Shown here piece after piece: positions 1 to 33,699 of a stretch of 64,000 nucleotides of DNA. A program made the position numbers and the translations under genes. Position 1 is the first letter of the stretch. Each line of letters starts with the position of its first letter. Under the pieces are notes generated by a model. The model had not been told where the DNA came from. It was given only the letters and a program-made list of their open reading frames with translations, and made no database searches. The stretch comes from Candidatus Omnitrophota bacterium (GTDB taxonomy: Bacteria; Omnitrophota; Gorgyraeia; Gygaellales; Profunditerraquicolaceae): contig JAQURX010000010.1 in assembly GCA_028715415.1 (NCBI GenBank), forward strand, positions 3,668 to 67,667, in the 5' to 3' direction.

Positions 1-1238
1 TCAATAAAAAATATTTTACCCGGCTCTAACCTTCCAGAAACTTTAATGTTGGCAGGGTCAATATCTAAAACCCCGACTTCAGAAGCCATAACCACAAAAT
101 CATCATTTGTAACAATGTAACGGGCGGGACGCAATCCGTTTCTATCAAGGATTGCACCGATATTTTTCCCGTCAGTAAAAGCAATCGCAGCCGGGCCATC
201 CCAAGGCTCAATAAAACAGGCATGATATTTATAAAAATCCCTCAGCTCCTTACTCATATGCAAATCGTGTTCCCATGCTACGGGAATAAGCATCATCATG
301 ACATGTTCGAGCGGCCTTCCCGACAAAACCAGTAGTTCAAAGAAATTGTCAATTGCCGCAGAATCACTTCCGCCTTCAACTATAACCGGCTTAAGCTTCT
401 CTATATCGGTCCCAAATAATTCACTTGAAAGCAGGCGTTCCCGGGCACTGACTCCATTTACATTTCCACGCAAAGTATTAATCTCACCGTTGTGTGCTAA
501 AAATCTAAAAGGCTGTGCCAAATTCCAAGTAGGAAAAGTGTTGGTTGAATAACGCGAATGCACAAGGCACATGGCACTTTTCATAGATTCATCTTTAAGA
601 TCAAGAAAGAAATTATCAATCTGCCCGGGCATAAGCAAACCTTTGTAGGATAACGTACGGCAGGAAATATTAGTAATGTAAAAAGATTTCTTTTGCTTTA
701 ATTCAGATTCAAAAATTATCCTCTCAACCTGTTTTCTGATAACATAAAGCTTCCTTTCAAAATCTAATTCATCTTTTATGCTTTCATTCTTACCGATAAA
801 GATATGTTCAAAAACCGGCTGGGTGCTTTTTGCCCCCTCTCCGATATCAGAATCGTTTATCGGCAGAGTACGCCAACCCAGTAATATTTGATTCTGTTCT
901 TCAATAACATTCTCAAATGTTTCTTTACAGAATTTACGTTCCTCATCATCCTGAGGCAGGAATATTAACCCGCTGCCATAAGAAGCTAAATCCGGCAAAT
1001 CAATATTATTCTCCTGCGCTACTTTCTTAAAAAAGCCGTGAGGAATCTGGATTAAAATCCCTGCCCCGTCTCCGGTCTTTGGGTCAGAACCAACAGCCCC
1101 GCGATGCGATAAACGGTGTAAAACCTCAACGCCCTGTTTTATGATGGCGTTGGATTTATCTCCTTTAATATTGCAAACAAACCCCACTCCGCAAGAATCA
1201 TGTTCAAAGATAGGGTCATACAAACCTTGAGCTTTCAT
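1..1238 (-). CDS. gltB: Glutamate synthase large subunit, N-terminal glutamine amidotransferase domain (partial; gene runs off the window start)
   Basis: Minus-strand translation from ATG (complement of 1236-1238) gives MKAQGLYDPIFEHDSCGVGFVCNIKGDKSNA...GDGAGILIQIPHGFF, the conserved GltB N-terminus with the catalytic Cys. No stop before coordinate 1, so it is absent from the ORF track. Confidence 0.75.
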   Translation of the reverse strand, partial: MKAQGLYDPIFEHDSCGVGFVCNIKGDKSNAIIKQGVEVLHRLSHRGAVGSDPKTGDGAGILIQIPHGFFKKVAQENNIDLPDLASYGSGLIFLPQDDEERKFCKETFENVIEEQNQILLGWRTLPINDSDIGEGAKSTQPVFEHIFIGKNESIKDELDFERKLYVIRKQVERIIFESELKQKKSFYITNISCRTLSYKGLLMPGQIDNFFLDLKDESMKSAMCLVHSRYSTNTFPTWNLAQPFRFLAHNGEINTLRGNVNGVSARERLLSSELFGTDIEKLKPVIVEGGSDSAAIDNFFELLVLSGRPLEHVMMMLIPVAWEHDLHMSKELRDFYKYHACFIEPWDGPAAIAFTDGKNIGAILDRNGLRPARYIVTNDDFVVMASEVGVLDIDPANIKVSGRLEPGKIFFI

Positions 1239-1483
1239 AGCTTTACCTCGCTTATAGAAATACCCAGCTTCTTAATCTTTGCGCGCAGGGTATTTCTGTT
1301 TATGCCCAATAATCTAGCAGCCTTCTTCTGATTTCCAAAAGTAACAATTAACGTATTCTTAATTAACGACTTCTCTAGCGAATCTAGCATAATATGATAA
1401 ATCTTTCCTTCCTGCTCCTTAAGGAACATCCTGTCTAATTCTTTAAGTGCTCTTTCGATTTCTTGTGCATTAACGTCTGTCAT
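1235..1483 (-). CDS. Small Fis-family DNA-binding protein (C-terminal HTH as in NtrC/Fis)
   Basis: 82 aa; C-terminal KKAARLLGINRNTLRAKIKKLGI is a Fis/NtrC-type HTH. Start and stop overlap with gltB. Confidence 0.5.
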   Translation of the reverse strand: MTDVNAQEIERALKELDRMFLKEQEGKIYHIMLDSLEKSLIKNTLIVTFGNQKKAARLLGINRNTLRAKIKKLGISISEVKL

Positions 1484-1540
1484 TTTTCGCCCAAAGATTA
1501 GTCACTCTTGTTTATAAAAAATACCTGCTATCCTTAATGC

Positions 1541-1562
1541 ATGGGCGGTTTAAACCGCCCAT
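1541..1562 (-). other. Perfect 22-nt palindrome ATGGGCGGTTTAAACCGCCCAT 11 nt downstream of the glnN stop; stem-loop without adjacent T-tract (possible terminator or stability/regulator site)
   Basis: Direct reading of the inverted repeat; no canonical U-run on either strand. Confidence 0.35.
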
Positions 1563-1572
1563 ATTACCTGTG

Positions 1573-3780
1573 TTAATCTACAAACAACATCTCCCTGTAT
1601 TTAGGTAAATCCCAAGCATCGTCTGAAACAACAGCCTCCAGAGCATCCACATGTTTTCTGATATGTTCCATTAAAGGCTTAAGTTCCTCAAAGTATAGCT
1701 TAGCCCGGCTTTCATTATTAAGCTCTTTGGCTTGTTCAAGCAATTTCACCATCTCACCAGCATTGCGCCTGACATAATAGATCTTCTCAACAACATCACT
1801 ATAATGGGATTTCTTGTCATTAAGCGCGCCTAAATCAACCTTAAGGCCTTCTGACTTCTTTAGATTAACAAGTTCCTTAAGCGTGCGAGCAAGAAGTAAC
1901 TCATATTTATATCCTGCAGGGACAACTGAAGCATTAACCATCTCATTTAAAGTATTTGCCTCAATCTCCAAAGTAAGGTTATACATATGCACCCAAATAT
2001 GGTAGCGGGCAATAAGCTCTTCTTTTGAATAAACTTTATACTTTTCAAAAAGAGCTATATTCTTGCCTTGAGTTAAAACCTCTAATGCTTGGTAGGTTGC
2101 CGCGATATTAGGAAGCCCTCTCTTTTTAGCTTCTTTAACCCACTCCGGAGAATAGTTATTCCCTTCAAAACGGATATCTTTAGTTTCTTTAACAATCGCA
2201 CTAATTACTTTTAAAACCGAGGAATTAAAATCTTTTCCTGTTGAGGTGACCTTTTTAATCTCACTTGCCACATAATCAAGGCTCTCAGCAATAATAGTAT
2301 TAATTACTGCGATAGGTGTTGAAATATTCTGCGATGAACCAACTGCCCTAAATTCAAACTTTGCCCCAGTAAATGCAAAAGGTGAGGTGCGATTCCTATC
2401 AGTTGAATCTTTGTTGAACTTAGGCAGCCTTGCAATACCTAAATCAATAATATCGCGCTTTGAAACTTTGGTCTTTGCTCCCTTTTCAAGCATCTCCAAG
2501 ACTTTAGTCAACTGCTCTCCTAAGAAAACACTGATAATTGCCGGAGGCGCTTCATTGGCACCCAAGCGATGTTCGTTTCCTGCTAAAGCAACTGAAGAAC
2601 GCAATAAATCTCCGTGAATGTATACTGCCCGCAAAACCGCTGCTAACACAGCTAAGAATTGTAAATTATCTTCAGGGGTCTGCCCGGGATTAAGCAAGTT
2701 ATTCCCTTTATCATCAGCCAATGACCAGTTAAGATGCTTTCCGCTCCCATTGATTCCGGCAAATGGTTTCTCATGAAGCAAGCAAACTAGATTGTGCCGC
2801 AGAGCTACTTTCTTTAATAATTCCATAAGAAGCTGATTATGGTCCGCAGCAAGATTAGATTCCTCAAAGATTGGAGCGAATTCATACTGATGAGGGGCTA
2901 CTTCATTATGCCTTGTCATTACCGGGATACCTAATTTGTAGGCTTCTTCGGCAACTTCAAACATAAAATTAACTACGCGTTCTTTGATTGTGCCGAAATA
3001 CTGATCTTCTAATTGCTGGCCCTTGGGGGATGGGGCACCGACTAAAGTACGCCCTGCCATAACCAAATCTTGACGTAAATTATAATAATGTTTATCAATC
3101 AAAAAATATTCCTGTTCCGGACCACAGGTAGAAAATACTTTTTTAATATCCTTATGGCCGAAAAGCTTTAACAAACCAACTGCTGCCTTATTTAGTGCTT
3201 CGTCAGAACGGATGAGTGGTAATTTCTTATCAAGAGCAGCACCATGATATGAGATAAAAATCGTAGGGATACAAAGTGTTTTACCTAATGTGCTTTCAAT
3301 GATAAATGCGGGGCTTGAAGGATCCCATGCAGTGTATCCTCTTGCTTCGAATGTTGCACGGATACCACCTGAAGGAAAACTTGAAGCATCGGGCTCGCCT
3401 TGGATTAACTTCGACCCAGAAAACTTCTCAATCACCTTGCCATTATCTACAAAAGAAATGAAACTATCGTGCTTTTCTGCTGTTAACCCGGTCATCGGCT
3501 GGAACCAATGGGTGTAATATGTTGCGCCCTTAGACATCGCCCATTCTTTCATCGCATCGGCAATCTCATTTGCCTGCTGCAAACTAATAATAACACCCTC
3601 GGACATCCAGGATTTGAATGCATCAAAAGTATTCTTTGAGATATGCTTACGCATCGTCTCAACACTAAACGTATTCTCGCCAAAATAGCTGGAGACTTTT
3701 TTAGAATGATTATTCTTATCTAAGTCTATATTTTTAATTTTAAATAAAACTTCCTGCCTTATACTCATTTTTCCCTCCAA
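1573..3780 (-). CDS. glnN: Glutamine synthetase type III (GSIII)
   Basis: 735 aa, the size typical of GSIII (about 730 aa) rather than GSI (about 470 aa); GS catalytic-domain motifs present; immediately downstream of PII and Amt. Confidence 0.85.
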   Translation of the reverse strand: MEGKMSIRQEVLFKIKNIDLDKNNHSKKVSSYFGENTFSVETMRKHISKNTFDAFKSWMSEGVIISLQQANEIADAMKEWAMSKGATYYTHWFQPMTGLTAEKHDSFISFVDNGKVIEKFSGSKLIQGEPDASSFPSGGIRATFEARGYTAWDPSSPAFIIESTLGKTLCIPTIFISYHGAALDKKLPLIRSDEALNKAAVGLLKLFGHKDIKKVFSTCGPEQEYFLIDKHYYNLRQDLVMAGRTLVGAPSPKGQQLEDQYFGTIKERVVNFMFEVAEEAYKLGIPVMTRHNEVAPHQYEFAPIFEESNLAADHNQLLMELLKKVALRHNLVCLLHEKPFAGINGSGKHLNWSLADDKGNNLLNPGQTPEDNLQFLAVLAAVLRAVYIHGDLLRSSVALAGNEHRLGANEAPPAIISVFLGEQLTKVLEMLEKGAKTKVSKRDIIDLGIARLPKFNKDSTDRNRTSPFAFTGAKFEFRAVGSSQNISTPIAVINTIIAESLDYVASEIKKVTSTGKDFNSSVLKVISAIVKETKDIRFEGNNYSPEWVKEAKKRGLPNIAATYQALEVLTQGKNIALFEKYKVYSKEELIARYHIWVHMYNLTLEIEANTLNEMVNASVVPAGYKYELLLARTLKELVNLKKSEGLKVDLGALNDKKSHYSDVVEKIYYVRRNAGEMVKLLEQAKELNNESRAKLYFEELKPLMEHIRKHVDALEAVVSDDAWDLPKYREMLFVD

Positions 3781-3794
3781 AAGAAATTAAGTTG

Positions 3795-4136
3795 TTAACC
3801 AATTGCCAAACTTCCGCGCTCTTCTGTCCGTATGCGTACGCACTCTTTTAAATCCAAAACAAAAATCTTACCATCACCTGTTTCCCCGGTCTTTGCTCCT
3901 TTGATAATTGCCTTGATCGTCGGCTCTACATAGTTATCATTTACGGCAATCTCAAGACGAATTTTACGCAAAAGATTCCCGGTCTCCTTTGCTCCACGGT
4001 AAATCTCGGTTACTCCCTTTTGACGGCCGTGCCCCAACACTTCATTAACCGTAATAAGATTTACCTCTGCATTATATAATTCTTCTTTTACTTCTTCTAA
4101 TTTGTCCGGCTGAATAATCGCTATAATTAATTTCAT
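3795..4136 (-). CDS. glnB: Nitrogen regulatory protein P-II
   Basis: 113 aa, [20 protein letters not shown]...GDGKIFV, PII family signature; sits between amt and glnN. Confidence 0.9.
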
Positions 4137-4164: not shown

Positions 4165-5394
4165 CTACTCTAAAACCGTATAAGCTCTCTCACGGTGCTG
4201 AGTTAAGTCCAAACCCATTAACTCCGATTTCTCATCAACCCTGACACCGATAAATAAATCAACTATTTTGTAAATTACTACTGTAAGGACCCCTGTAAAA
4301 ACTATCGTAATCCCGACTGCTGCTAATTGCACAAAGAATTGCTTAGGGTTCCCAAAGAATAATCCATTTGCTCCTGCTGCATTTACTGCTTTTGAGGCAA
4401 ACAAACCTGTTGCTAAAGCGCCCCAAATACCCCCTACACAATGCACGCCAAAAGCATCCAATGAATCATCATACCCAAATTTAGGTTTTACTACAGTAAC
4501 GGCAATAAAACAAAACACACTTACTAACAACCCGATTATTATCGCAGGAATAACACTGACAAAACCCGCAGCCGGAGTAATCGCAACTAACCCGGCAACT
4601 GCTCCAGAACACAAACCAAATATTGTCGGCTTTCCATTATGCATCCATTCAATCAGCGCCCAGCTTAAACCCGCAGCTGCAGCCGCAGTATTCGTAACTA
4701 CAAATGCATTTACTGCTAAACCATTTGCCGCAAGCGAGCTGCCCGCATTAAATCCGAACCAACCAAACCATAATAAACCCGTCCCCAAGACTACAAAAGG
4801 CATGTTATGAGGAGTTGGGATATTCTTTTCTAAATTAGTCCTCTTGCCCAATACAATTGCGGTTATAATTGCTGCAATCCCGGCATTAATATGCACAACT
4901 GTGCCTCCGGCAAAATCAAGCGCACCTATATTACGCAAGAAACCTCCCACTCCCCAGACCCAATGGCAAAGCGGAGCATAAACAAATGTCGCCCAGAGAA
5001 GAGTAAAAACCAAAAATGCGGAAAATTTCATCCTCTCGGCAAAAGCACCGATTATTAAAGCAGGAGTTATAATTGCAAACATACACTGGAAAATCATAAA
5101 TGCCTGATGAGGAATTGTCCCAGCGTAATCTGCATACGGCTCTAAGCCTACCCCGCGTAAACCTGCCCAGGCAAATCCTCCCCAGAAAGCTTTCGCAGGA
5201 GCAAAAGAAAGGCTATACCCAATTAACACCCAGTGGATACTCAATACACACATAACGATAAAACATTGCATCAAAACGCTAAGCACATTTTTACGCCTGA
5301 CCATCCCGCCATAGAAAAACGCTAAAGCCGGGGTCATAAGTAAGACTAAAGCTGACGATATTAAAACCCATGCTGTATCTCCGGAATTTATCAT
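4165..5394 (-). CDS. amt: Ammonium transporter (Amt/MEP family)
   Basis: 409 aa polytopic membrane protein with Amt-family conserved stretches (DFAGGTVVHINAG, GAVAGLVAITPAAGFV). Confidence 0.9.
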   Translation of the reverse strand: MINSGDTAWVLISSALVLLMTPALAFFYGGMVRRKNVLSVLMQCFIVMCVLSIHWVLIGYSLSFAPAKAFWGGFAWAGLRGVGLEPYADYAGTIPHQAFMIFQCMFAIITPALIIGAFAERMKFSAFLVFTLLWATFVYAPLCHWVWGVGGFLRNIGALDFAGGTVVHINAGIAAIITAIVLGKRTNLEKNIPTPHNMPFVVLGTGLLWFGWFGFNAGSSLAANGLAVNAFVVTNTAAAAAGLSWALIEWMHNGKPTIFGLCSGAVAGLVAITPAAGFVSVIPAIIIGLLVSVFCFIAVTVVKPKFGYDDSLDAFGVHCVGGIWGALATGLFASKAVNAAGANGLFFGNPKQFFVQLAAVGITIVFTGVLTVVIYKIVDLFIGVRVDEKSELMGLDLTQHRERAYTVLE

Positions 5395-5407: not shown

Positions 5408-6217
5408 TCAAAAATTTATATCTAACTGAAAAGTTATAGTATCAGTCAGGTTTTTATTATTGTAAATATCATACGCAACGAGCGCTGAAATATCTTTTGT
5501 GAAACTCCAGGCAAACCCTGCGTTTAAGGCGCCATAAGCAGATTGCGATCCCTGATAATCAACACATAGCCACAATTTATCACTAATCTCTGACATGGTG
5601 CGCTCCCAACCAATCATTGGGCCGGTATTATCGCGTAAGCTATTCTTATCCCTAAGCAGCTTGCCATTACCTGAAAAATAGCCTCCGGAGACCCTGCCTA
5701 AGTTCACCTTACCTATATTAAGAGTTTTGGCAATCCTGCCATACCAAACATTATTGTTGGTCCGGTTCGCTCTTGTGCCCATATCATAGGAACCAATAGC
5801 AACTGCAGGCATATTCTTAAAATAGGCGTCTTCCGGAACACCAAGTTTAAAATGGAAATACCAGGGAGTTGAATCATAAAAAGAACCTAAACCCTTCTTA
5901 TAATCAAACCCTGTTTCAGCCATAATCTTGCCTAATGGCTTCCAAACCTTTCCCAAAAGGTTATCTTCCGGCTTATCTGATAATAAACTAAAGACCGGGC
6001 CCCAATCTTGCAGGCAATAATTATGCTGATCATAGTTATCCGCGTTAGTCCCCTTTGAAGTGGTAGGAACATAAATATCATAACCCAAATGAATCTTCTT
6101 ATAAGGCTGAATATCCGTAGATGGAGCCCAAATAAGAGTTGTAGGCGTAGCATACAACAAGTTAACCCCTAAAACACAAAATATAAAACATATTAAAGCA
6201 ATTCTTATTTTCTTCAT
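5408..6217 (-). CDS. Outer-membrane beta-barrel (porin-like) protein, first gene of the amt-glnB-glnN operon
   Basis: Signal peptide (MKKIRIALICFIFCVLGVNLLYA), alternating amphipathic beta-strand pattern, C-terminal Phe (…QLDINF). The likely start is the ATG at 6217; the ORF-track start at 6229 is a GTG. Confidence 0.5.
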   Translation of the reverse strand: MKKIRIALICFIFCVLGVNLLYATPTTLIWAPSTDIQPYKKIHLGYDIYVPTTSKGTNADNYDQHNYCLQDWGPVFSLLSDKPEDNLLGKVWKPLGKIMAETGFDYKKGLGSFYDSTPWYFHFKLGVPEDAYFKNMPAVAIGSYDMGTRANRTNNNVWYGRIAKTLNIGKVNLGRVSGGYFSGNGKLLRDKNSLRDNTGPMIGWERTMSEISDKLWLCVDYQGSQSAYGALNAGFAWSFTKDISALVAYDIYNNKNLTDTITFQLDINF

Positions 6218-6245
6218 GGTTCTATTCACCCTTCCTGCGCCTCAA

Positions 6246-6389
6246 TAAAAAAGAGACGCTTCCACCTTAAAAAGGTTTAAGACGTCTCTGTCTTTAACAC
6301 TAAAAAAGCCCTTCCCAAAGCACTCATTGCTCTGAAAAGGGCATCATTGTCCTTAAAAAAGAAAAAGCCCCAAATTATTTTTTGGGGCT
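6246..6389 (-). terminator. Three tandem hairpin+T-tract structures on the minus strand in the leader of the porin-amt-glnB-glnN operon
   Basis: T1 AGCCCC..GGGGCT (6366-6389) followed by TTTTTCTTTTTT; T2 GCCCTT..AAGGGC (6308-6343) followed by T6; T3 AGAGACG..CGTCTCT (6252-6289) followed by T6, ending about 30 nt upstream of the porin start codon. Confidence 0.5.
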
Positions 6390-6420
6390 TCTCTGCCTAT
6401 TTGACATCACTGTCAAAATA

Positions 6421-6448
6421 AGTATAACATTTTCTCTTTTTTTGTCAA
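6421..6448 (-). promoter_or_regulatory. Sigma70-like promoter TTGACA-16 nt-TATACT (minus strand)
   Basis: Complement of 6443-6448 is TTGACA and complement of 6421-6426 is TATACT, 16-nt spacer. Located between the small membrane-protein gene and the terminator-rich leader. Confidence 0.45.
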
Positions 6449-6481
6449 GTATTATTTTTTAAATTGTAGTTTCAAAGGACT

Positions 6482-6700
6482 TCATTCTTTGGCTATTGCA
6501 AGAGTGATTATACCTGCGAGAACCAAAAATGGCCCTGTGCAACCTTTAATAACCAGCCATGAATGCTGCCACCAAAGCCTACCAAGAAGTAAATAAGCAG
6601 CTAACCCTAAGAAAACTAAACCTAAAATAACCTTAGACATTGTACCCATTGCATTTTTACATTCACATTTCTTCTCTTCCTGTTTTACTTCATCTGCCAT
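6482..6700 (-). CDS. Small two-TM membrane protein, unknown function
   Basis: 72 aa, N-terminal CECK motif followed by two hydrophobic helices. Confidence 0.35.
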   Translation of the reverse strand: MADEVKQEEKKCECKNAMGTMSKVILGLVFLGLAAYLLLGRLWWQHSWLVIKGCTGPFLVLAGIITLAIAKE

Positions 6701-6713
6701 ATTACCACCTCCT

Positions 6714-7625
6714 TTAACTTGGTTTACTTTTCCATCTACGGTGAATCCAACCCCATTCAGCAGGGTATTTTCTTATATACAGTTCAATCACATTTGTCAA
6801 TCTTTGGATATTTATAGCAATTGTTTCTTTGGAATCTTTCCCTTCTTCTAACTCTATAGGCTCATCAAAGATAATCTTATGCTTATTATCGTCTTTTCTC
6901 ACAATAAAGCAAGGCAATAAAACCGCCTGGGTGCGCTGTGCGAAAACAACCGGGCCGGTTGCTGTTGCTGCTTTAACCCCAAAGAAATCTACAAAAACCC
7001 CGGCAGTGCCAAAATTCTGGTCTATGGGAATAAACACAATCGCGTTATTGCGCAATTCCCTGATTGTTGAATCAACACAAACATTGCGCGGCTGGCTATA
7101 AATTGTTTTAACGTTGTATTTTTTGCGCTTATCCAAAAAGATTTTTTCAACGCGTTCATCGCGCATTGGCCGCATGATCCCAGAAACATCATAGCCTTCC
7201 TGGCTTAATCGGGCTAAAAGCAAAGGAAAATTCCCAAAATGAGCACTCACCAAGATTACTCCCTTACCGCGGGAAAGAGCCTGGTCAAGATTCTTTAAAT
7301 TCTCAAACCCAACGCTATTTCTTAATAGTTCTGGCTTATCCATCATAAACATAAGCTCAATAGCTGATTTAGCCATAAGGTTAAAACTATCTTCTGCGAT
7401 CTTCTCTAATTCCTGGTTAGGCTTATCCTCGCCAAAAGCGATCTTTAAGCTTTCTAAAGCAATCTTCTTTTGCTTTTTCGCAAAACGATAGGCTAATGAT
7501 GATAATCCACTGGCAAACCCGTAGATACAGCGTTTTGGGATGAATTTAATTGCCAAAGAGCAAAAAATTATTCCAAACCAGCCAAAAAACCGAGGGACGC
7601 TTTTTTTTATTTTTTTTAGATCCAT
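6714..7625 (-). CDS. Lipid A biosynthesis lauroyl/myristoyl acyltransferase family (LpxL/HtrB-like)
   Basis: 303 aa, N-terminal TM anchor, overall similarity to the Kdo2-lipid IVA late acyltransferase family (PF03279). Confidence 0.65.
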   Translation of the reverse strand: MDLKKIKKSVPRFFGWFGIIFCSLAIKFIPKRCIYGFASGLSSLAYRFAKKQKKIALESLKIAFGEDKPNQELEKIAEDSFNLMAKSAIELMFMMDKPELLRNSVGFENLKNLDQALSRGKGVILVSAHFGNFPLLLARLSQEGYDVSGIMRPMRDERVEKIFLDKRKKYNVKTIYSQPRNVCVDSTIRELRNNAIVFIPIDQNFGTAGVFVDFFGVKAATATGPVVFAQRTQAVLLPCFIVRKDDNKHKIIFDEPIELEEGKDSKETIAINIQRLTNVIELYIRKYPAEWGWIHRRWKSKPS

Positions 7626-9906: not shown

Positions 9907-10785
9907 ATGAACCCTCAAATTAACCTTCATTACGCATCAATCAGGCGAGTCCTTGTTTTTGTTTTGATTCTTAACTGGGCTGTCGCTTTTGCTAAGATTA
10001 TCTACGGCTATCTTACTTCCTGCGTTAGCATGACTGCAGACGGCTTCCATTCATTATCAGACGGAGCTTCTAATATCATCGGGATTATCGGTATTCAATT
10101 CGCCTGCCAGCCGCAAGATAAAGACCATCCCTACGGACATAAAAAATATGAAACTTTCTTTTCTTTGGGTATTTCCATGCTTTTATTCCTGCTTTCATTC
10201 AACCTGATAAAAGAAGGTATTGGCCGAATTAGCCATCCGGGGCTTCCAAGAATAGATGCATTGAGTTTCTCCGTCATGGTTCTTACCATGATAGTTAATA
10301 TCTGGGTTATGTGTTATGAAAAAAATAAAGGCAAAGAGTTACGCAGCGATATACTTATTTCGGATGCCTTACACACCAAAGCTGATATCTTCACTTCTTG
10401 CTCGGTAATCATAGCATTAATTGCAATTAAAATAGGCTATCCCATCCTTGACCCGATTATCACAATCCTAATTGCCTTATTTATTGCTTTTTCAGGATTT
10501 GAAATTGTTAAAGAGAGCTCCCGCGTTCTTTGCGATACAGCTGCAATTCTGGATGTAAAAAAGATTGAGGATATTGTTTTAAAGATAGACGGAGTTAAAG
10601 CTTGCCATAAAATACGTTCACGTGGAAGAGCGGATGATATTCACGTAGATTTACATGCACAGGTAAACCCTTCTATGCAGATGTCTGAATCACATAGGAT
10701 AAGTTTTGAAATTGAAGGCGCTATTAAGAAGGAAATCCCGGAAATTACCGATGTAGTTGTGCATATGGAACCCCTCAAAGGCTAA
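9907..10785 (+). CDS. Cation diffusion facilitator (CDF) family metal efflux transporter
   Basis: 292 aa, six TM helices with HSLSDG motif in TM2 and H/D-rich loops, C-terminal cytoplasmic domain. Confidence 0.85.
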   Translation: MNPQINLHYASIRRVLVFVLILNWAVAFAKIIYGYLTSCVSMTADGFHSLSDGASNIIGIIGIQFACQPQDKDHPYGHKKYETFFSLGISMLLFLLSFNLIKEGIGRISHPGLPRIDALSFSVMVLTMIVNIWVMCYEKNKGKELRSDILISDALHTKADIFTSCSVIIALIAIKIGYPILDPIITILIALFIAFSGFEIVKESSRVLCDTAAILDVKKIEDIVLKIDGVKACHKIRSRGRADDIHVDLHAQVNPSMQMSESHRISFEIEGAIKKEIPEITDVVVHMEPLKG

Positions 10786-10786
10786 T

Positions 10787-11929
10787 TTAAAGCCCTTTTA
10801 GCACAAACCAAAATCCAATACTAGAGATTACTCCCATCACCCCGCCGAAATAAAATGGAGCCTGGGCCCCAAGATATTTCCAAAGGATACCTGCAAATAT
10901 TGACGCAGGCAGCAAGGCAACCCCAACTAAAGTAGCATGCAAGCCAATCACTGTAGCACGCAGATTAGCAGGCGCAATGTCAGTAAGCAATGCTTTCTCT
11001 ACTCCTTCAGTAAAACCGATATACAAACCGTATACCGCAAATAAAGACCAGAGCGTATGAATCGAATTATTCATAGCAAAACCAAAATAAACAATGCCGT
11101 ACAAAAAATATCCTGCGACCAATATTTTTTTTCTCCCAATCTTATCCGACAATCGCGAAGCAGGATACGCAACTAAACCATAAACAATATTATAAGCAAG
11201 ATAAAGAAGGATGACGTGTGTAATTGTGCTGCCCATATTCTTCGCCCGTAGTAGTAAAAACTGGTTTGAAGAGTTCCCCAAAGTAAAAACAAATGAAAGT
11301 ATCAGAAATAATTTCAGCTTTTTATCCAAAGCATTCCATTTAAATTCAAGTTTCTTCTGTCCGGTAACTACCACAGATTTTTTTTCTCTTACAAAGAACA
11401 AAAAGAAAATTCCAAAGAAAGCGGGAATCAAAGAAAACAAAAATATGCTTCTTAGGTTTCCTTTGAATCTTGTTACCAGGTAATATGTCAAAGTAACACC
11501 GATAATAGCTCCAAAAGTATCCATTGCCCGGTGAAGGCCAAAGGCTTGCCCGCGTTTTGTCGCAATTGAACTATCCGCGATAAGCGCATCCCGGGGAGCA
11601 GTACGCACCCCTTTTCCAAATCTATCTATTAACCGAGCAGCTAAAACCCCTCCCCAGCTTGTTGATAAAAATAAAAATATTTTCCCTATTGTTGAACAAG
11701 AATAACCAAATATGGTAAAGGGTTTTCTTAGTTTTATCTTATCGGAGAAATAACCTGAGAATACCTTAAGCAGGCTTGCCAAACTCTCCGCTAAACCTTC
11801 AATAAAACCAAGTATTGCCGGGCTTGCACCGAGAGTTGTAACCAAAAACACTGGCAAAATAGGATAAACCATCTCGGTTGAGATGTCCGTGAGTAAACTC
11901 GTTATCCCCAATAAAAAAATATTAAACAT
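10787..11929 (-). CDS. MFS transporter
   Basis: 380 aa, 12 predicted TM segments, MFS-type loop between TM2 and TM3 (GxLaDRxGrk-like: LIDRFGKG). Confidence 0.7.
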   Translation of the reverse strand: MFNIFLLGITSLLTDISTEMVYPILPVFLVTTLGASPAILGFIEGLAESLASLLKVFSGYFSDKIKLRKPFTIFGYSCSTIGKIFLFLSTSWGGVLAARLIDRFGKGVRTAPRDALIADSSIATKRGQAFGLHRAMDTFGAIIGVTLTYYLVTRFKGNLRSIFLFSLIPAFFGIFFLFFVREKKSVVVTGQKKLEFKWNALDKKLKLFLILSFVFTLGNSSNQFLLLRAKNMGSTITHVILLYLAYNIVYGLVAYPASRLSDKIGRKKILVAGYFLYGIVYFGFAMNNSIHTLWSLFAVYGLYIGFTEGVEKALLTDIAPANLRATVIGLHATLVGVALLPASIFAGILWKYLGAQAPFYFGGVMGVISSIGFWFVLKGL

Positions 11930-29109: not shown

Positions 29110-29172
29110 AGAGGCGTCTATTTGATAGGCCAAGTTATCACCGATTGATAAACTTAGGCTGGAGACGCCCCT
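29110..29172 (-). terminator. Long imperfect hairpin + T-tract downstream of the giant gene (also T-run on the plus strand; likely bidirectional terminator)
   Basis: GAGGCGTCT...GGAGACGCC stem closing 29112-29168, followed by TTTTTT on plus and TCTTTTTTATT on minus. Confidence 0.45.
29140..29154. repeat. 15-bp element ACCGATTGATAAACT, 3'-UTR copy of an inverted repeat that flanks the giant gene
   Basis: Exact reverse complement of 33712-33726. Confidence 0.8.
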
Positions 29173-29175
29173 TTT

Positions 29176-32100
29176 TTAAATTCTTTTTCCCAATAAAGCT
29201 ACTCTTAAATCCTGCTCCGAAACTGCTGAATCAATAACTACCAGAATATCCTTAAGGCCTGAATCTGTGGCACAGCACCGCTCTTCTTCCATCCTTAAGA
29301 TATCCGCAATACAAGAGATTACTTTATCAATGTCTCTGTCAATATTACCTTTGTAACAGGAAGCCTGGAGGTATTCCTTGATCCTGTCAGATGAAGGAAC
29401 TATGCCTGAATTAACCAGATTCTCTATTTCCCTCCATTCTGAATTAAGGTTTATATCATTAAGCCTGCTTGCGGATGGATTACCAATGTTAACGCTTAGG
29501 CTGCTTATGGCTTGAGTAACTATTGGTAGATGACGAAAATCGATTCCGCCGAAACTTTTAGTAGCCTGTATAAGCTTTGCTTCAGGGACAACATTTCTTT
29601 CCAATTCTGGACTTTCAATAATTTTTGATTTTTGGCTCAATAAACTAACGACCCTTTTGCTGCCATCTTTCTCTTTATCTGAATACCAATCTGAACTATT
29701 CAATATTCTTTTTGCCTCTTTCAGGACAATCTTCTTAGAATTAGAAGATAACCGCTCCAAAATAAGTTCTGCCTGCTGGCCAACAATATCTAATGGACAA
29801 GCCTGAGCTATGATCAAAATATCTACCAAATTACTTCCCAACTTTGTTTTCTCAAGCTCTACTTCACCTTTTCTTGCCAATTCATACAATTCATCAAACG
29901 TTCTGCTATTATTTACGCTCCAAAAAATTCCTTCGATTGCTCTCCTGTCATCGCGCCCTGCTTCTTCTTCCCATAAATCTCTTGAAAGATACACTTCAAC
30001 AATAGCCCCCAATCCAAGATATGCTAAAGGAGTACCGTTCTTCCTTTCTTCCTCAAAGATACGATCCCAAAATCCTTTAGCTTGCGGCAATATTGCCTTC
30101 ACTACAATTTTCTGAGCACCAATCTTCTGAGCATACTCTCTTGCTGCAGACCAAAGGCCTCGGCCAATTCCCTTATCTCTGAATCTTGAAAAAACCAAAA
30201 TATCAAAAACACTCAAATAAACTCTATCCCCATATACTTCCTTAACACAAGTAATAAAACCGGCGACTTCCCCATTTTCCAAATAAACAAGATATTCATT
30301 ATTCGGATTGCCAAAAGCTTCTTGAAGTTTTTCATAAGACTTTTTTTCCGTTTCTTTATTTACCATTGCAAGATAAGAAGCAATCTGACGAATATATAAT
30401 TCATTACCTCTCACTGGCCAAACATTACCTGTTTTCTTCCTCGCAACATCCTCCTTTTGCTCTACCCTAAGAATATCCTCCATTTGCCTTGCCAATTCAT
30501 GAGCATCTTCTGGTGATATCTCCGAATGCATTTCAGCAACCCACTTAGCCATCGCTTCATGGCCAAGCCCAGCTAATATCAAACGTAAGTCATTGTTATG
30601 CCCTGCCAAATACTGATCACCTATGAATATTCTGTTACCAAGCCTTACGGGCCCGTTGATAGACCTACCGTCTAATCTTTTCATAAAAGGCTCGGCTACA
30701 ACTATTACTTCAGCGCCATTAATCCTTCCCGGGCCAAATTTATCTTCCAGCTCTTTAACTATATCCTTAGGCAAAGCTATACGCCTGGCTCCGCTTGAAT
30801 CTGCTAATCTTTGTATTGCCTCAACATCTTCTCTTGTAACATCACCTTCCAGAGCATGATCTTCATTTTTATTAGTAGGCGTAACTTTTAAACCAATGAC
30901 TGCTTTTGTCTGGCCTCCTCGAAGATCATTCTTCCCTTTGTTATATCTACTTTCTATCTCTGTAGCAAACCGATTAAAAGTGCTATAAGGAACTTCATCC
31001 TGCTGGAAATCACTCCTTAACTCATTTAACACCTCAACCGATATTCTAAAAATCCGGTCCCAATTTACGCCTTGAGGGTTACTACGGATTATCCTTGCAA
31101 GCGCTGCTCTGCCAGGAGTATGGGTATCTTCAATGCTCTTATCATTAGGCTTATTTTCCCAATTGGCAGAATGCTTTTCATATTTTGAATTAGCTGTTAT
31201 TCTTTTAACGGCATCATTGAATAAATTATTATCGCCTATTATGGATCTTAAAGATTTAAATCCATAAATATCGCATAAAAATTCATGCATAGCAGCCATG
31301 TTTTGATTAGTTAAGGTCTGATTAAATCCTTTGGAATAAAGCAATTTATGCATTGCTTCATGCGCAAAAGACCAAAAAGTTTGGTAGGAATAACCTATCC
31401 TATTTAATCCCATTACACCGACAGAATAAGCTCCTTCTATATACGCATTAAGCCGGAATGAAGACGCTGCCTTCAACAACATTGTCGTTTCTCCGCTCTC
31501 TTTAGGCAAAAGAGGCTCCGAATTCATAAGGATTGCGAACATTAGAAAATATGATTGTAATTTTGGCTCTCCAGCCAATACCAAGTCTTCGCGCAAAATA
31601 TTCTGTATTTTATTGCTTCCGCTTTCCCTGAAGAATTTTTCTGCTAAATATTGCCAATCTTCTCCTTTAATGATTTTATTTATTTCTGTTAAGTTTTGGT
31701 CTAAAAGCAAACAGGTTAATCCCAAAGCATAAGCTCTTAATTCAACAGGCATTGATTTATCTTGCCTTATACTATCTATGAATTTACGATCGTTTCTTAA
31801 GTGATACAAAATAAGATATCCGAAATCAGGGTGTTGTTTAATAAATTCTTTTGCTCCCCGGCTTTCATTTTTTGACAGAATATTAACGACTTGTTTTTGC
31901 AGGCTAATATCTGGAGTCAATAAGCCTACTAGTTTTTCTCTTTGATGGGGATAATTGTACAAAAGATTATGCAGCGCTAATGCAGACCTACGCCACAATA
32001 CACTATCTTTAGATGTCGATTTATAAGTATCTACTAGGGCATTTATCGCGAAAACATAGCCATTCTCCGCAAACCATTCAAGATGAGAATACGGAAGCCG

Positions 32101-33699
32101 TCCGAGATCTTCAACTGTAACGCCTTCTTCTTCTAACTTCACCAATGCACTAAATAACCTCTCAAAAGCATGGACCACCGGAGAGCTTTCATATTTGAAG
32201 GCAAATGTATCTGGATACTTAACCAAACGAAATAGTAAATCTAAAGCTATGTATCTTATTCTTTCCTGCTCCTTATTGGTCGTTTTGGAACGGATAATTT
32301 GTTCAAGCTTGGGGATTAATTGAAAAACTTGCCTTAACGCAGCAGGATCATTTTGAGCCTTGATTCCAAGATTAATCAGATCCTTTGCGAAAAGCTCCTT
32401 CTTATTTATCGATGGCGCAGGTTTGCTTGCAGGTATTGCTGCTAGCGCCGTAATCTTAGGTGGCTCTTCCAAAACCTTTACTTTAAACTCTGGCTGGGCA
32501 GCGCCGGATGCTTCTGTTAAAGATAACAATACCAACAAAGGAAATAAAAACTTTTTTCCTTTCCTGAAGATTTCGGATATTGTTCCGTTGGATGGGGACA
32601 AAGTTATGCGAGCCCCTGTTTTAGGATCAGTAAAAGTCTCTGCGCCAAAAGGGGGCATATTTGGCGCGATCCCGCTAATACCCCCCGAGAAATAACTCCT
32701 TATTACCTGCCCGTAGAGTGTATTTACCGAATCTTTAATATTGTATTCACCGTCTTTGAATGATTTCTGGTAAGCTTCGAAATAAGTAGATTTTGACCAG
32801 GATTCTTTGGAAGCAAGGTTTGAAGTAATAACATTCCTATCTATCAGCTTGGAATACGGATTATTTTGGCTGGAAAATCTCGACTTAAACCACTGCGCCA
32901 TGATAAGAGAATAATAAACCTGTCTTAACTGGGCATAGCGCTTTGAAGTATTAATCTCTTTGGTTAACTTTGGGATAATCAAATCCCTGATCAATTGGGA
33001 TGCGTATTCATTTAATTCTTTTAGCCTGTCATCCTTAAAGTTATAAGTTGCTGAATTCTTAAGATAATCCTGTTCCAAGCAAACCTTAAGAGTTGCCTTG
33101 TAGATATAAGCTGAGTCTTTAGTCTCACGGATAATAATCTCATCGGGAATTATCCAAGGGCGGGTTAATGTTGGGATAGTAACTTCCTCTGAACCAAAAA
33201 GCTCCCCTGCTTTTTTGTAAAGTTTGTCCCAATACTCTTTTCCTTCAGGTGTCTGTGGAGAAGTAAATCGTGCAGTATCCTTTTTAAGCTCAACGTCTGA
33301 AGCAAGCATGATCTTGCCGATTTCGGTCTGAGCAAGGTTGTCATCAATAATATCGTCTTCGGCGTCAGGACGCAGATTCACCCAGAAGCTCTCATTAGGA
33401 AGGGTTAATCCGATAAGAAAATAATCTAAAAGTATTTTACCTGAATCCTCTAACTCCTGATTGGAATGATCTTTAAGGCTTCCTTTATCAACGAGTATAT
33501 TAAAATTGTTGTTTAGGCTGTCGAAGGAAAGATATCTTAAGTGCAGGGGACGATAAACATCAGGAATTAACGTATTGCGCAATAAAGACAGACTCCCGGC
33601 AATGTCCAGCTGTCCGGCTACCTGGGCAAAACCGGATTGCTCAAATATAAGCAAAAAACAAAGCAAAAAAGCGAGTATTCTAGTAAGTTTTGTCTGCAT
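29176..33699 (-). CDS. Giant secreted multidomain protein (1507 aa) with embedded GNAT acetyltransferase domain and HExxH motif; function unknown
   Basis: Signal peptide MQTKLTRILAFLLCFLLIFEQSGFA; internal hydrophobic helix FLFPLLVLLSLTEASGAA; helical-repeat region; SFAHEAMHKLL...AAMHEF (HExxH + downstream E); GNAT motif A FRDKGIGRGLWSAAREYA with preceding beta-strand block; long C-terminal region with no recognisable motif. Confidence 0.8.
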   Translation of the reverse strand: MQTKLTRILAFLLCFLLIFEQSGFAQVAGQLDIAGSLSLLRNTLIPDVYRPLHLRYLSFDSLNNNFNILVDKGSLKDHSNQELEDSGKILLDYFLIGLTLPNESFWVNLRPDAEDDIIDDNLAQTEIGKIMLASDVELKKDTARFTSPQTPEGKEYWDKLYKKAGELFGSEEVTIPTLTRPWIIPDEIIIRETKDSAYIYKATLKVCLEQDYLKNSATYNFKDDRLKELNEYASQLIRDLIIPKLTKEINTSKRYAQLRQVYYSLIMAQWFKSRFSSQNNPYSKLIDRNVITSNLASKESWSKSTYFEAYQKSFKDGEYNIKDSVNTLYGQVIRSYFSGGISGIAPNMPPFGAETFTDPKTGARITLSPSNGTISEIFRKGKKFLFPLLVLLSLTEASGAAQPEFKVKVLEEPPKITALAAIPASKPAPSINKKELFAKDLINLGIKAQNDPAALRQVFQLIPKLEQIIRSKTTNKEQERIRYIALDLLFRLVKYPDTFAFKYESSPVVHAFERLFSALVKLEEEGVTVEDLGRLPYSHLEWFAENGYVFAINALVDTYKSTSKDSVLWRRSALALHNLLYNYPHQREKLVGLLTPDISLQKQVVNILSKNESRGAKEFIKQHPDFGYLILYHLRNDRKFIDSIRQDKSMPVELRAYALGLTCLLLDQNLTEINKIIKGEDWQYLAEKFFRESGSNKIQNILREDLVLAGEPKLQSYFLMFAILMNSEPLLPKESGETTMLLKAASSFRLNAYIEGAYSVGVMGLNRIGYSYQTFWSFAHEAMHKLLYSKGFNQTLTNQNMAAMHEFLCDIYGFKSLRSIIGDNNLFNDAVKRITANSKYEKHSANWENKPNDKSIEDTHTPGRAALARIIRSNPQGVNWDRIFRISVEVLNELRSDFQQDEVPYSTFNRFATEIESRYNKGKNDLRGGQTKAVIGLKVTPTNKNEDHALEGDVTREDVEAIQRLADSSGARRIALPKDIVKELEDKFGPGRINGAEVIVVAEPFMKRLDGRSINGPVRLGNRIFIGDQYLAGHNNDLRLILAGLGHEAMAKWVAEMHSEISPEDAHELARQMEDILRVEQKEDVARKKTGNVWPVRGNELYIRQIASYLAMVNKETEKKSYEKLQEAFGNPNNEYLVYLENGEVAGFITCVKEVYGDRVYLSVFDILVFSRFRDKGIGRGLWSAAREYAQKIGAQKIVVKAILPQAKGFWDRIFEEERKNGTPLAYLGLGAIVEVYLSRDLWEEEAGRDDRRAIEGIFWSVNNSRTFDELYELARKGEVELEKTKLGSNLVDILIIAQACPLDIVGQQAELILERLSSNSKKIVLKEAKRILNSSDWYSDKEKDGSKRVVSLLSQKSKIIESPELERNVVPEAKLIQATKSFGGIDFRHLPIVTQAISSLSVNIGNPSASRLNDINLNSEWREIENLVNSGIVPSSDRIKEYLQASCYKGNIDRDIDKVISCIADILRMEEERCCATDSGLKDILVVIDSAVSEQDLRVALLGKRI

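Follow-up and report, generated by a model that had tools for sequence, protein, structure and literature searches.

Antitermination by ANTAR-domain proteins uses an RNA recognition element of two short hexaloop hairpins, in which loop position 1 is A and loop position 4 is G (A1/G4), and the 3′ hairpin overlaps a terminator (PMC3369931). The minimal ANTAR site was later redefined, from crystal structures of EutV with RNA, as a single hexaloop (PMC8934654). Many bacteria are predicted to have target motifs of this kind in front of their genes for PII, ammonium transporters and glutamine synthetase, and Desulfotomaculum acetoxidans has 13 ANTAR sites in 6 transcription units (PMC3369931). As of 2012, characterised ANTAR proteins did not include any with a GAF or PAS domain (PMC3369931). 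In Geobacter, GnfR directs ANTAR-dependent antitermination of a nitrogen regulon; termination signals lie upstream of glnK and amtB, and experimental proof was given on nifH (PMC2995071). The sequence CAGGCAANGGCGCC, the GnfR box, corresponds to a GGC-AANGGC-GCC hexaloop hairpin over the terminators of the nif, glnK and amtB leaders (PMC2995071). A literature search returned no report linking ANTAR with Omnitrophota or with operons for glutamine synthetase III (GSIII). Here we describe a 230-base leader from a 64-kb stretch of DNA, the window, of a Candidatus Omnitrophota bacterium (contig JAQURX010000010.1, positions 3,668 to 67,667). It lies on the minus strand in front of a nitrogen-assimilation operon, porin-amt-PII-GSIII(-HTH-gltB), where HTH stands for a helix-turn-helix gene and 'porin' is a mere label of the first gene. 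From sequence comparison we read this leader, with a probability of roughly 0.8, as a device for protein-dependent three-step antitermination by a GAF-ANTAR regulator.

Hairpins and terminators of the leader

The elements of the leader, in transcript order and in window positions, are as follows.

6421-6448, minus strand: promoter of sigma-70 type, 11/12 consensus match, with -35 TTGACA at 6448-6443, a 16-nt spacer and TATACT at 6426-6421
6401-6416, minus strand: P1, the palindrome TTGACAGTGATGTCAA at 6416-6401, beginning 5 nt past the -10 hexamer; hairpin UUGAC-AGUGAU-GUCAA, -3.2 to -4.9 kcal/mol, A1/G4 hexaloop
6386-6397, minus strand: P2, mini-hairpin GGC-AGAGAA-GCC, -2.8 kcal/mol versus -17.9 kcal/mol for T1, A1/G4 hexaloop
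6355-6393, minus strand: T1, terminator with its stem at 6393-6361, GAGAAGCCCCAAA-AAAUAA-UUUGGGGCUUUUU followed by CUUUUUU, -17.9 kcal/mol
6340-6352, minus strand: P3, mini-hairpin GG(a)C-AAUGAU-GCC with a bulged A, +1.0 kcal/mol alone, A1/G4 hexaloop
6300-6342, minus strand: T2, terminator with its 15-bp stem at 6342-6308, GCCCUUUUCAGAGCA-AUGAG-UGCUUUGGGAAGGGC followed by UUUUUU, -22.5 kcal/mol
6279-6294, minus strand: P4, hairpin AAGAC-AGAGAC-GUCUU, -3.2 kcal/mol versus -17.5 kcal/mol for T3, A1/G4 hexaloop
6289-6252, minus strand, with a U-tract to about 6244: T3, terminator AGAGACG.CUU..ACCUU-UUU-AAGGU..AAGCGUCUCU followed by UUUUUU, -17.5 kcal/mol
6217-6235, minus strand: ribosome-binding region GGAAGGGUG and the first gene's ATG (6217), which aligns with orthologous start codons

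An earlier annotation made from the letters alone (the sequence-only reading) had described a TTGACA-16-TATACT promoter on the minus strand, a palindrome shortly after it and three consecutive stem-loops with U-tracts, the last of them about 30 nt before the operon. This framework was recovered in full: the promoter is present and conserved in nine leaders, the palindrome is P1, the stem-loops are T1, T2 and T3, and about 30 nt separate T3, whose stem ends at 6252, from the ATG at 6217. What the framework lacked is a series of small hairpins laid over the terminators. All four loops, from P1 to P4, have the A1/G4 signature. P2 and T1 cannot form together, because the 3′ arm of P2 is the 5′ base of T1. 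The 3′ arm of P3, GCC, likewise doubles as the 5′ base of T2 (P3 at 6352-6340, T2 at 6342-6308), and the loop and 3′ arm of P4 make up the 5′ arm of T3 (P4 at 6294-6279, T3 at 6289-6252). A hairpin overlapping the 5′ arm of a terminator, with exclusive folds, as in known ANTAR targets, is accordingly found three times, in P2/T1, P3/T2 and P4/T3, and two adjacent hexaloop stem-loops, the other hallmark of these targets, are found in P1 and P2 with AUA between them. The mini-hairpins over the terminators have predicted energies of +1.0 to -3.2 kcal/mol and the terminators of -17.5 to -22.5 kcal/mol; termination should therefore be the default, and read-through should need a stabilising factor.

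The 204-nt leader as a whole has a minimum free energy of -75.3 kcal/mol, compared with -48.0 +/- 4.1 kcal/mol in 200 shuffled sequences (z = -6.7), none of which (0/200) is as stable. The apex loop of T2 reads AAUGAGU, which is 7 nt long with A1/G4, once its closing A-U pair is opened. T1 and T2 were caught by a generic terminator scanner; T3 was not, because its loop is longer than 8 nt, and a liberal scan with many false positives served solely to locate it. The promoter has an extended -10 element, TGtTATACT (6429-6421, minus strand). Promoter-like matches number 31 in the window versus 31.5 expected from shuffles; the class is not enriched, and thus the match of the leader promoter by itself is little proof. 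Transcription is predicted to start near 6414, and P1, beginning 5 nt past the -10 hexamer, consequently falls where the RNA is predicted to begin. No promoter-like match was found between T3 and the ATG at 6217.

Searches of Rfam with the leader at E <= 10 and with the whole window at gathering thresholds returned chance matches and two tRNAs alone; the best match, MicC, reached 25.8 bits versus a gathering score of 90 (E = 0.69) and is not significant. Two small open reading frames (ORFs) lie in or next to the leader. One, of 10 codons (MSNRQRSPKK, 6406-6374, minus strand), runs from an AUG within P1 to the loop of T1. This ORF has no Shine-Dalgarno sequence, is 4 codons long in two orthologous leaders (L002 and L003) and absent from a third (L004), and is probably meaningless. 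The other encodes a hydrophobic protein of 72 amino acids (6482-6700, minus strand), is located between a gene for an LpxL-like acyltransferase and the leader, and has no family match.

Relatives of the leader and their GAF-ANTAR genes

With the operon's first gene as query, 45 loci were obtained, comprising 26 from Omnitrophota genome bins, one partial Omnitrophota match (L045) and 18 loci almost all of which are from Bacteroidales; the best matches are 84-85% identical. L002-L004 have a leader of the window type from the -35 hexamer through the start codon. A metagenome scan with the pattern GAAGCCCCA-N(2-10)-TTTGGGG, which is too generic and matched at least 120 stretches, yielded at least five further leaders of the window type (L049, L097 with two copies, L153 and L162), so that nine leaders including that of the window could be compared. 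As the sequence-only reading had proposed, the comparison of orthologous leaders is informative: the promoter, P1-P4 and T1-T3 are common to all nine. The -35 hexamer TTGACA and the TGn plus -10 element are kept in 9/9, and the upstream genes are unrelated. Loop position G4 is invariant in P2, P3 and P4, and positions 2, 3, 5 and 6 are variable overall, apart from invariant positions 5-6 (AA) in P2 and position 2 in P3, where A1, A2 and G4 are all invariant. In P2 and P4, position 1 can be either A or G. In L004, P1 carries a compensatory change (GUGAC/GUCAC), and P3 is without the bulged A and has a perfect GGC/GCC stem. T1 is conserved in the nine leaders and T3 in the orthologues, and T2 forms, with altered stem pairs, in the four orthologues that were folded. 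MAFFT misaligns the 3′ arm of T2; loop conservation and folds of the single sequences were relied on instead.

All nine leaders are directly 5′ of nitrogen genes and co-oriented with them, the first gene being that of the porin, amt, PII or a sigma-like protein. In L097, a 16-kb metagenome contig, two full triple-terminator leaders are found (6697-6900 and 10689-10895), one before the sigma-like gene and the other before an amt-PII-GSIII operon without a porin gene. The constant position 5′ of nitrogen genes and this duplicate argue that the element is a cis-acting leader and not a free-standing gene. L004 has, in addition, a further ANTAR-type site past GSIII and before a 79-aa ORF (6515-6600), with GAC-AGAGAC-GUC, an internal UCC..GGA hairpin and a terminator; the equivalent position of the window has no ANTAR-type site.

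The remaining Omnitrophota loci have leaders of like logic and other sequence, such as CAC-AUUGAA-GUG ... AAC-ANNGGC-GUU and UAC-AGCGUU-GUA ... GAC-ACAGAA-GUC, each over a terminator, and GAC-GCAGGC-GUC, where a second hairpin lies within the terminator. The stems equivalent to P1 in these sister classes carry G-U pairs (GCAC...GUGU). A hexaloop over a terminator is found within 1 kb (<=1 kb) upstream of the porin gene in 23/26 Omnitrophota loci versus 1/18 loci of the Bacteroidales type. When the window was scanned with a descriptor of dual A..G.. hexaloops and an overlapping terminator, three matches were obtained, all of them in the leader and P1-P2 and P4 among them; 100 dinucleotide shuffles gave a mean of 0.14 matches, and none of them (0/100) reached three. 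A covariance model, R1, was built from 24 dual-hairpin sites of Omnitrophota loci with ANTAR genes, none of them from the window clade. Its pair 24-35, the outer pair of P2, covaries (GC 11, AU 8, GU 3, other or mismatch 2). In 128 kb of window sequence, the top match of R1 is P1-P2 (6415-6382, 16 bits, E = 0.048), and the second is P4 (6330-6277, 15.7 bits, E = 0.057). R1 is short and poorly specific, and is therefore taken as supporting evidence alone.

The same relatives point to the candidate regulator. Six-frame ORFs were compared with AmiR, PdtaR and consensus ANTAR sequences, which revealed 15 ANTAR ORFs in the related loci. Genes for GAF-ANTAR proteins are located 1-4 kb upstream of the orthologous operon in 14/26 Omnitrophota loci, and none was found by the six-frame search in the flanks of the Bacteroidales-type loci (0/18). 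Pfam confirms the architecture of GAF plus ANTAR, with 62-76 bits for the ANTAR domain against a cut-off of 27.3. In one such locus (L001), whose porin is 84% identical to that of the window, the gene order is aminotransferase, GAF-ANTAR at 4424-5146, a 179-aa extracytoplasmic function (ECF)-like sigma/LuxR-HTH protein, porin, amt, PII, GSIII and HTH. At E <= 1e-30, 6282 homologues of the GAF-ANTAR protein are found, of which the best 120 are 86-100% identical; those with names are GAF-domain proteins or 'GAF and ANTAR domain-containing protein' of Candidatus Omnitrophota/Omnitrophica. The GAF-ANTAR gene is housed in a conserved nitrogen super-locus of Omnitrophota (contigs of clusters P0114 and P0016, e.g. 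L166 and L174). Its order begins with an AsnC-type regulator, aminotransferase, GAF-ANTAR, in some cases NAD synthase, a sigma-like gene and a porin-like gene, and goes on with amt, PII, amt, PII, GSIII, a Fis-type HTH gene and glutamate synthase. In the window clade the regulatory genes do not adjoin the operon. From these relatives we infer that the organism of the window has such a regulator elsewhere.

The GAF regions of PtsP (EI-Ntr) and NifA are sensors of nitrogen status, responding to 2-oxoglutarate or glutamine. They are also the best NCBIfam likeness of the GAF domain of the candidate regulator, at E of about 1e-14 and far below the family cut-offs, which is only a hint as to the signal. 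L012 has tandem GAF-ANTAR paralogues (696-1478 and 1776-2483), the second type of which occurs also in L009, L023 and L026; such paralogues may recognise different classes of hairpin, e.g. those with ANNGGC and ANNGAN loops.

The sigma-like gene (e.g. L001:5325-5864 and L097:6914-7438) encodes 174-179 amino acids; many Omnitrophota loci have it after the GAF-ANTAR gene and before the porin operon. Its product has a GerE/LuxR HTH and scores 40.2 bits with the ECF sigma-70 superfamily model TIGR02937, just under the threshold of 42.9, and the gene has a leader of its own with two or three ANTAR-type terminators. A box of the form GGTTACC-N(10-20)-TACTTGTA occurs 34 times in 19/45 loci, always on the gene strand, and stands directly upstream of ANTAR-type leaders of nitrogen genes in the examples read (L001:8560-8590, L011:5876-5906 and L014:4548-4578). 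The box resembles a promoter served by a dedicated sigma factor, and is absent from the window.

Proposed antitermination and rival explanations

In the favoured reading, the off state would be the default: polymerase starts at the sigma-70 promoter, the RNA folds into T1-T3, almost no transcript would reach the first gene, and leader RNAs of about 55, 110 and 165 nt would be released. In the on state, an active GAF-ANTAR protein would bind P1/P2, P3 and P4 as they emerge, and each stabilised hairpin would sequester the 5′ base of one terminator, allowing polymerase to read into the operon. Three gates in series would multiply their termination efficiencies and so give a very low leak and a steep response to the active regulator. 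The signal is probably a metabolite of nitrogen status, 2-oxoglutarate or glutamine, sensed by the GAF domain. Multi-step attenuation or antitermination, one of the two functions offered by the sequence-only reading, has thus gained ground from the A1/G4 hexaloop over each terminator and from the GAF-ANTAR genes by the operons of relatives. The search for an ANTAR regulator, also suggested there, had a divided outcome, since it succeeded in the related Omnitrophota loci and gave none in the 64-kb window.

Several observations weigh against this reading. The six-frame ORF search found no ANTAR domain encoded in the window, no ANTAR gene lies in the flanks of the eight other window-type leaders, and the contexts of P0114 and P0016 have the sister leader type throughout, with no co-occurrence of the regulator and a leader of the window type. 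The canonical dual hairpin is present at T1 only, while a single clear hexaloop hairpin is seen at T2 and likewise at T3; at the apex of T2 the loop is 5-7 nt long instead of 6, and the apex of T3 is without an A/G loop. The P1-P2 linker is 3 nt long, or 5 nt if just 3-bp stems are counted; in E. faecalis, EutV-dependent induction was impaired when the linker was 3 nt (PMC3369931). G4 of the P1 loop is found in 6/9 leaders and is not G in 3/9. The stems of P2-P4 are nearly invariant in the window clade, which amounts to conservation with little covariation. Finally, R1 also scores 16-18 bits on AT-rich Bacteroidales sequence, and its E-values are rough.

Some of these points would be accommodated if the same architecture served a non-ANTAR RNA-binding protein, or if a processive mechanism were loaded at P1/P2 and rendered polymerase resistant to T2 and T3. 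The missing ANTAR gene, in the window and beside all nine window-type leaders, and the missing second canonical hexaloop at T2 and T3 would fit this, and the distal operon does contain a small Fis-type HTH gene of unassigned role. However, an A1/G4 hexaloop closed by a C-G pair is a specific mark of ANTAR targets (PMC3369931, PMC8934654), close relatives have ANTAR genes flanking the orthologous operons, and no other conserved RNA-binding regulator is found near the compared loci; as for a processive mechanism, G4 is invariant in P3 and P4 too, which would be superfluous if P1/P2 alone mattered. We consider explanations of this kind improbable. Still less credit is due to an independent gene, in which a trans-acting RNA of about 55 nt is produced by the promoter and T1, with T2 and T3 serving as back-up terminators. 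The sequence-only reading had allowed for a small RNA of about 60 nt, and the strong conserved promoter with a strong terminator about 55 nt downstream would suit it; terminated leader RNAs with ANTAR sites can also act themselves, as EutX/Rli55 does by sequestering EutV (PMC8934654). As a primary function, however, this is not supported: the nine copies are all 5′ of co-oriented nitrogen genes, with four kinds of first gene and twice in L097, and without the leader promoter the operon would be left with none, as there is no other after T3. Moreover, there is no Rfam match, and the conserved features oppose terminators and do not form a single-stranded seed region.

Equally slight is the chance that T1-T3 are unregulated tandem terminators insulating the operon from the upstream LpxL cluster, or that P1 is a DNA operator for a repressor at +1, or both. 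T1 does lie about 90-120 nt past the end of the upstream 72-aa ORF, whose stop codon is at 6482, and P1 is a perfect DNA palindrome over the predicted start, without G-U pairs in the window clade. Nevertheless, the promoter is upstream of T1-T3, so that the terminators act on the operon's own transcript, and the leader is conserved as a unit while the upstream genes differ; the G-U pairs of the sister P1 stems fit RNA rather than DNA, and the invariant G4 loops over each terminator are left unexplained by either proposal. Least probable of all is a metabolite riboswitch, e.g. one sensing glutamine, or a leader-peptide attenuator. Although the site upstream of nitrogen-assimilation genes and the 10-codon ORF running from its AUG at 6406 over P1 to T1 might suggest them, the leader matches no Rfam family even at E <= 10 and consists of simple hairpins one after another, without a junction or a conserved pocket, and the ORF, lacking a Shine-Dalgarno sequence, is not conserved in L002-L004.

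Returning to antitermination by a GAF-ANTAR protein, a wider and rather doubtful extension is that the nitrogen-assimilation regulon of Omnitrophota forms a two-layer circuit of GAF-ANTAR protein and sigma factor, with the triple attenuator as a cooperative, near-digital gate in the window clade. In the first layer, the one-component GAF-ANTAR protein may read 2-oxoglutarate or glutamine directly and open one to three terminators per leader. In the second, the ANTAR-gated ECF-like sigma factor may drive the GGTTACC-N(10-20)-TACTTGTA promoters of further ANTAR-gated nitrogen genes. If this extension were true, single hexaloops (P3 and P4) would suffice co-transcriptionally, which would back the single-hexaloop model of ANTAR recognition in vivo.

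The downstream operon and described attenuation systems

The operon read from the leader consists of the following genes.

5408-6217, minus strand: first gene ('porin'), 269 aa, with an N-terminus like a signal peptide
4165-5394, minus strand: ammonium transporter (PF00909, E = 4.6e-129)
3795-4136, minus strand: PII (PF00543)
1573-3780, minus strand: GSIII (PF12437, PF00120 and PF18318)
1235-1483, minus strand: HTH protein of the Fis/NtrC-C-terminal type, 82 aa
1-1236, minus strand: start of the gene for the glutamate-synthase large subunit, running off the window

These Pfam matches bear out the amt, PII and GSIII genes named in the sequence-only reading. The first gene has no Pfam or NCBIfam match, permissive thresholds included, and has homologues of 40-50% identity in Bacteroidales bins. 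The genes are co-directional, with intergenic gaps of 13-28 nt as far as GSIII; the stop codon of the HTH gene overlaps the start of the glutamate-synthase gene (ATGA), and related contigs show the same gene order. A GC-rich hairpin, GGGCGGUUUAAACCGCCC (1535-1560, minus strand), follows the stop codon of GSIII and has no adjacent U-tract. Two other candidates in the window were rejected as nitrogen features: an ORF of 1507 aa (29176-33699, minus strand), in which only a GNAT acetyltransferase domain is recognised at about residues 1118-1212, and the hairpin after it (29111-29171), an ordinary intergenic terminator that is strong and bidirectional.

What is new here is the phylum Omnitrophota, the likely GAF-ANTAR partner, the GSIII target and the stacking of three attenuators, two of which have a single hexaloop; the principle that ANTAR proteins control nitrogen genes was known before. 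The statement of the sequence-only reading that neither of its mechanisms is established for GSIII/PII/Amt operons is therefore incorrect, as ANTAR control has been reported or predicted for amtB, glnK, PII and glutamine synthetase leaders (PMC2995071, PMC3369931). The favoured reading provides a testable mechanism of nitrogen assimilation for an uncultured and poorly understood phylum, and ties a large and very conserved GAF-ANTAR family of 6282 homologues to defined RNA targets. The triple leader is a natural test case both for the sufficiency of single hexaloops during transcription and for the effect of stacking attenuators. For annotation, such leaders should be read as cis-regulatory attenuators and not as small RNA genes or stray terminators.

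Serial switches are known from tandem riboswitches and multiple T-box leaders (e.g. Bacillus subtilis thrZ), where they tighten the off state and make the response steeper. These systems sense metabolites or tRNA directly, whereas the leader of the window most likely needs a protein. Among protein-dependent leaders, those of EutV/eut in Enterococcus faecalis, NasR/nasF and AmiR/ami resemble that of the window in their A1/G4 hexaloops, with the 3′ arm over the terminator. The nitrogen regulons predicted by covariance for ANTAR proteins (PMC3369931) have in common with it the site in the 5′ leader, the PII, amt and glutamine synthetase genes, and several attenuators per transcription unit. In contrast to known ANTAR leaders, the window has three complete terminators within 170 nt of one leader, a dual hairpin at the first terminator only and a P1-P2 linker of 3-5 nt; it comes from Omnitrophota, and its candidate regulator is a one-component GAF-ANTAR protein.

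The likeness is close also to the GnfK/GnfR system of Geobacter sulfurreducens, which operates by the same relief of premature termination in nitrogen leaders, including those of glnK and amtB. Its box, GGC-AANGGC-GCC, is close both to GGC-AGAGAA-GCC of the window and to AAC-ANNGGC-GUU of a sister class. However, GnfR is a response regulator that is phosphorylated and belongs to an RpoN/GnfM cascade, whereas the window has a sigma-70-like promoter and a candidate GAF sensor. Unlike the Geobacter system, moreover, the window operon encodes GSIII and is preceded by three terminators in series.

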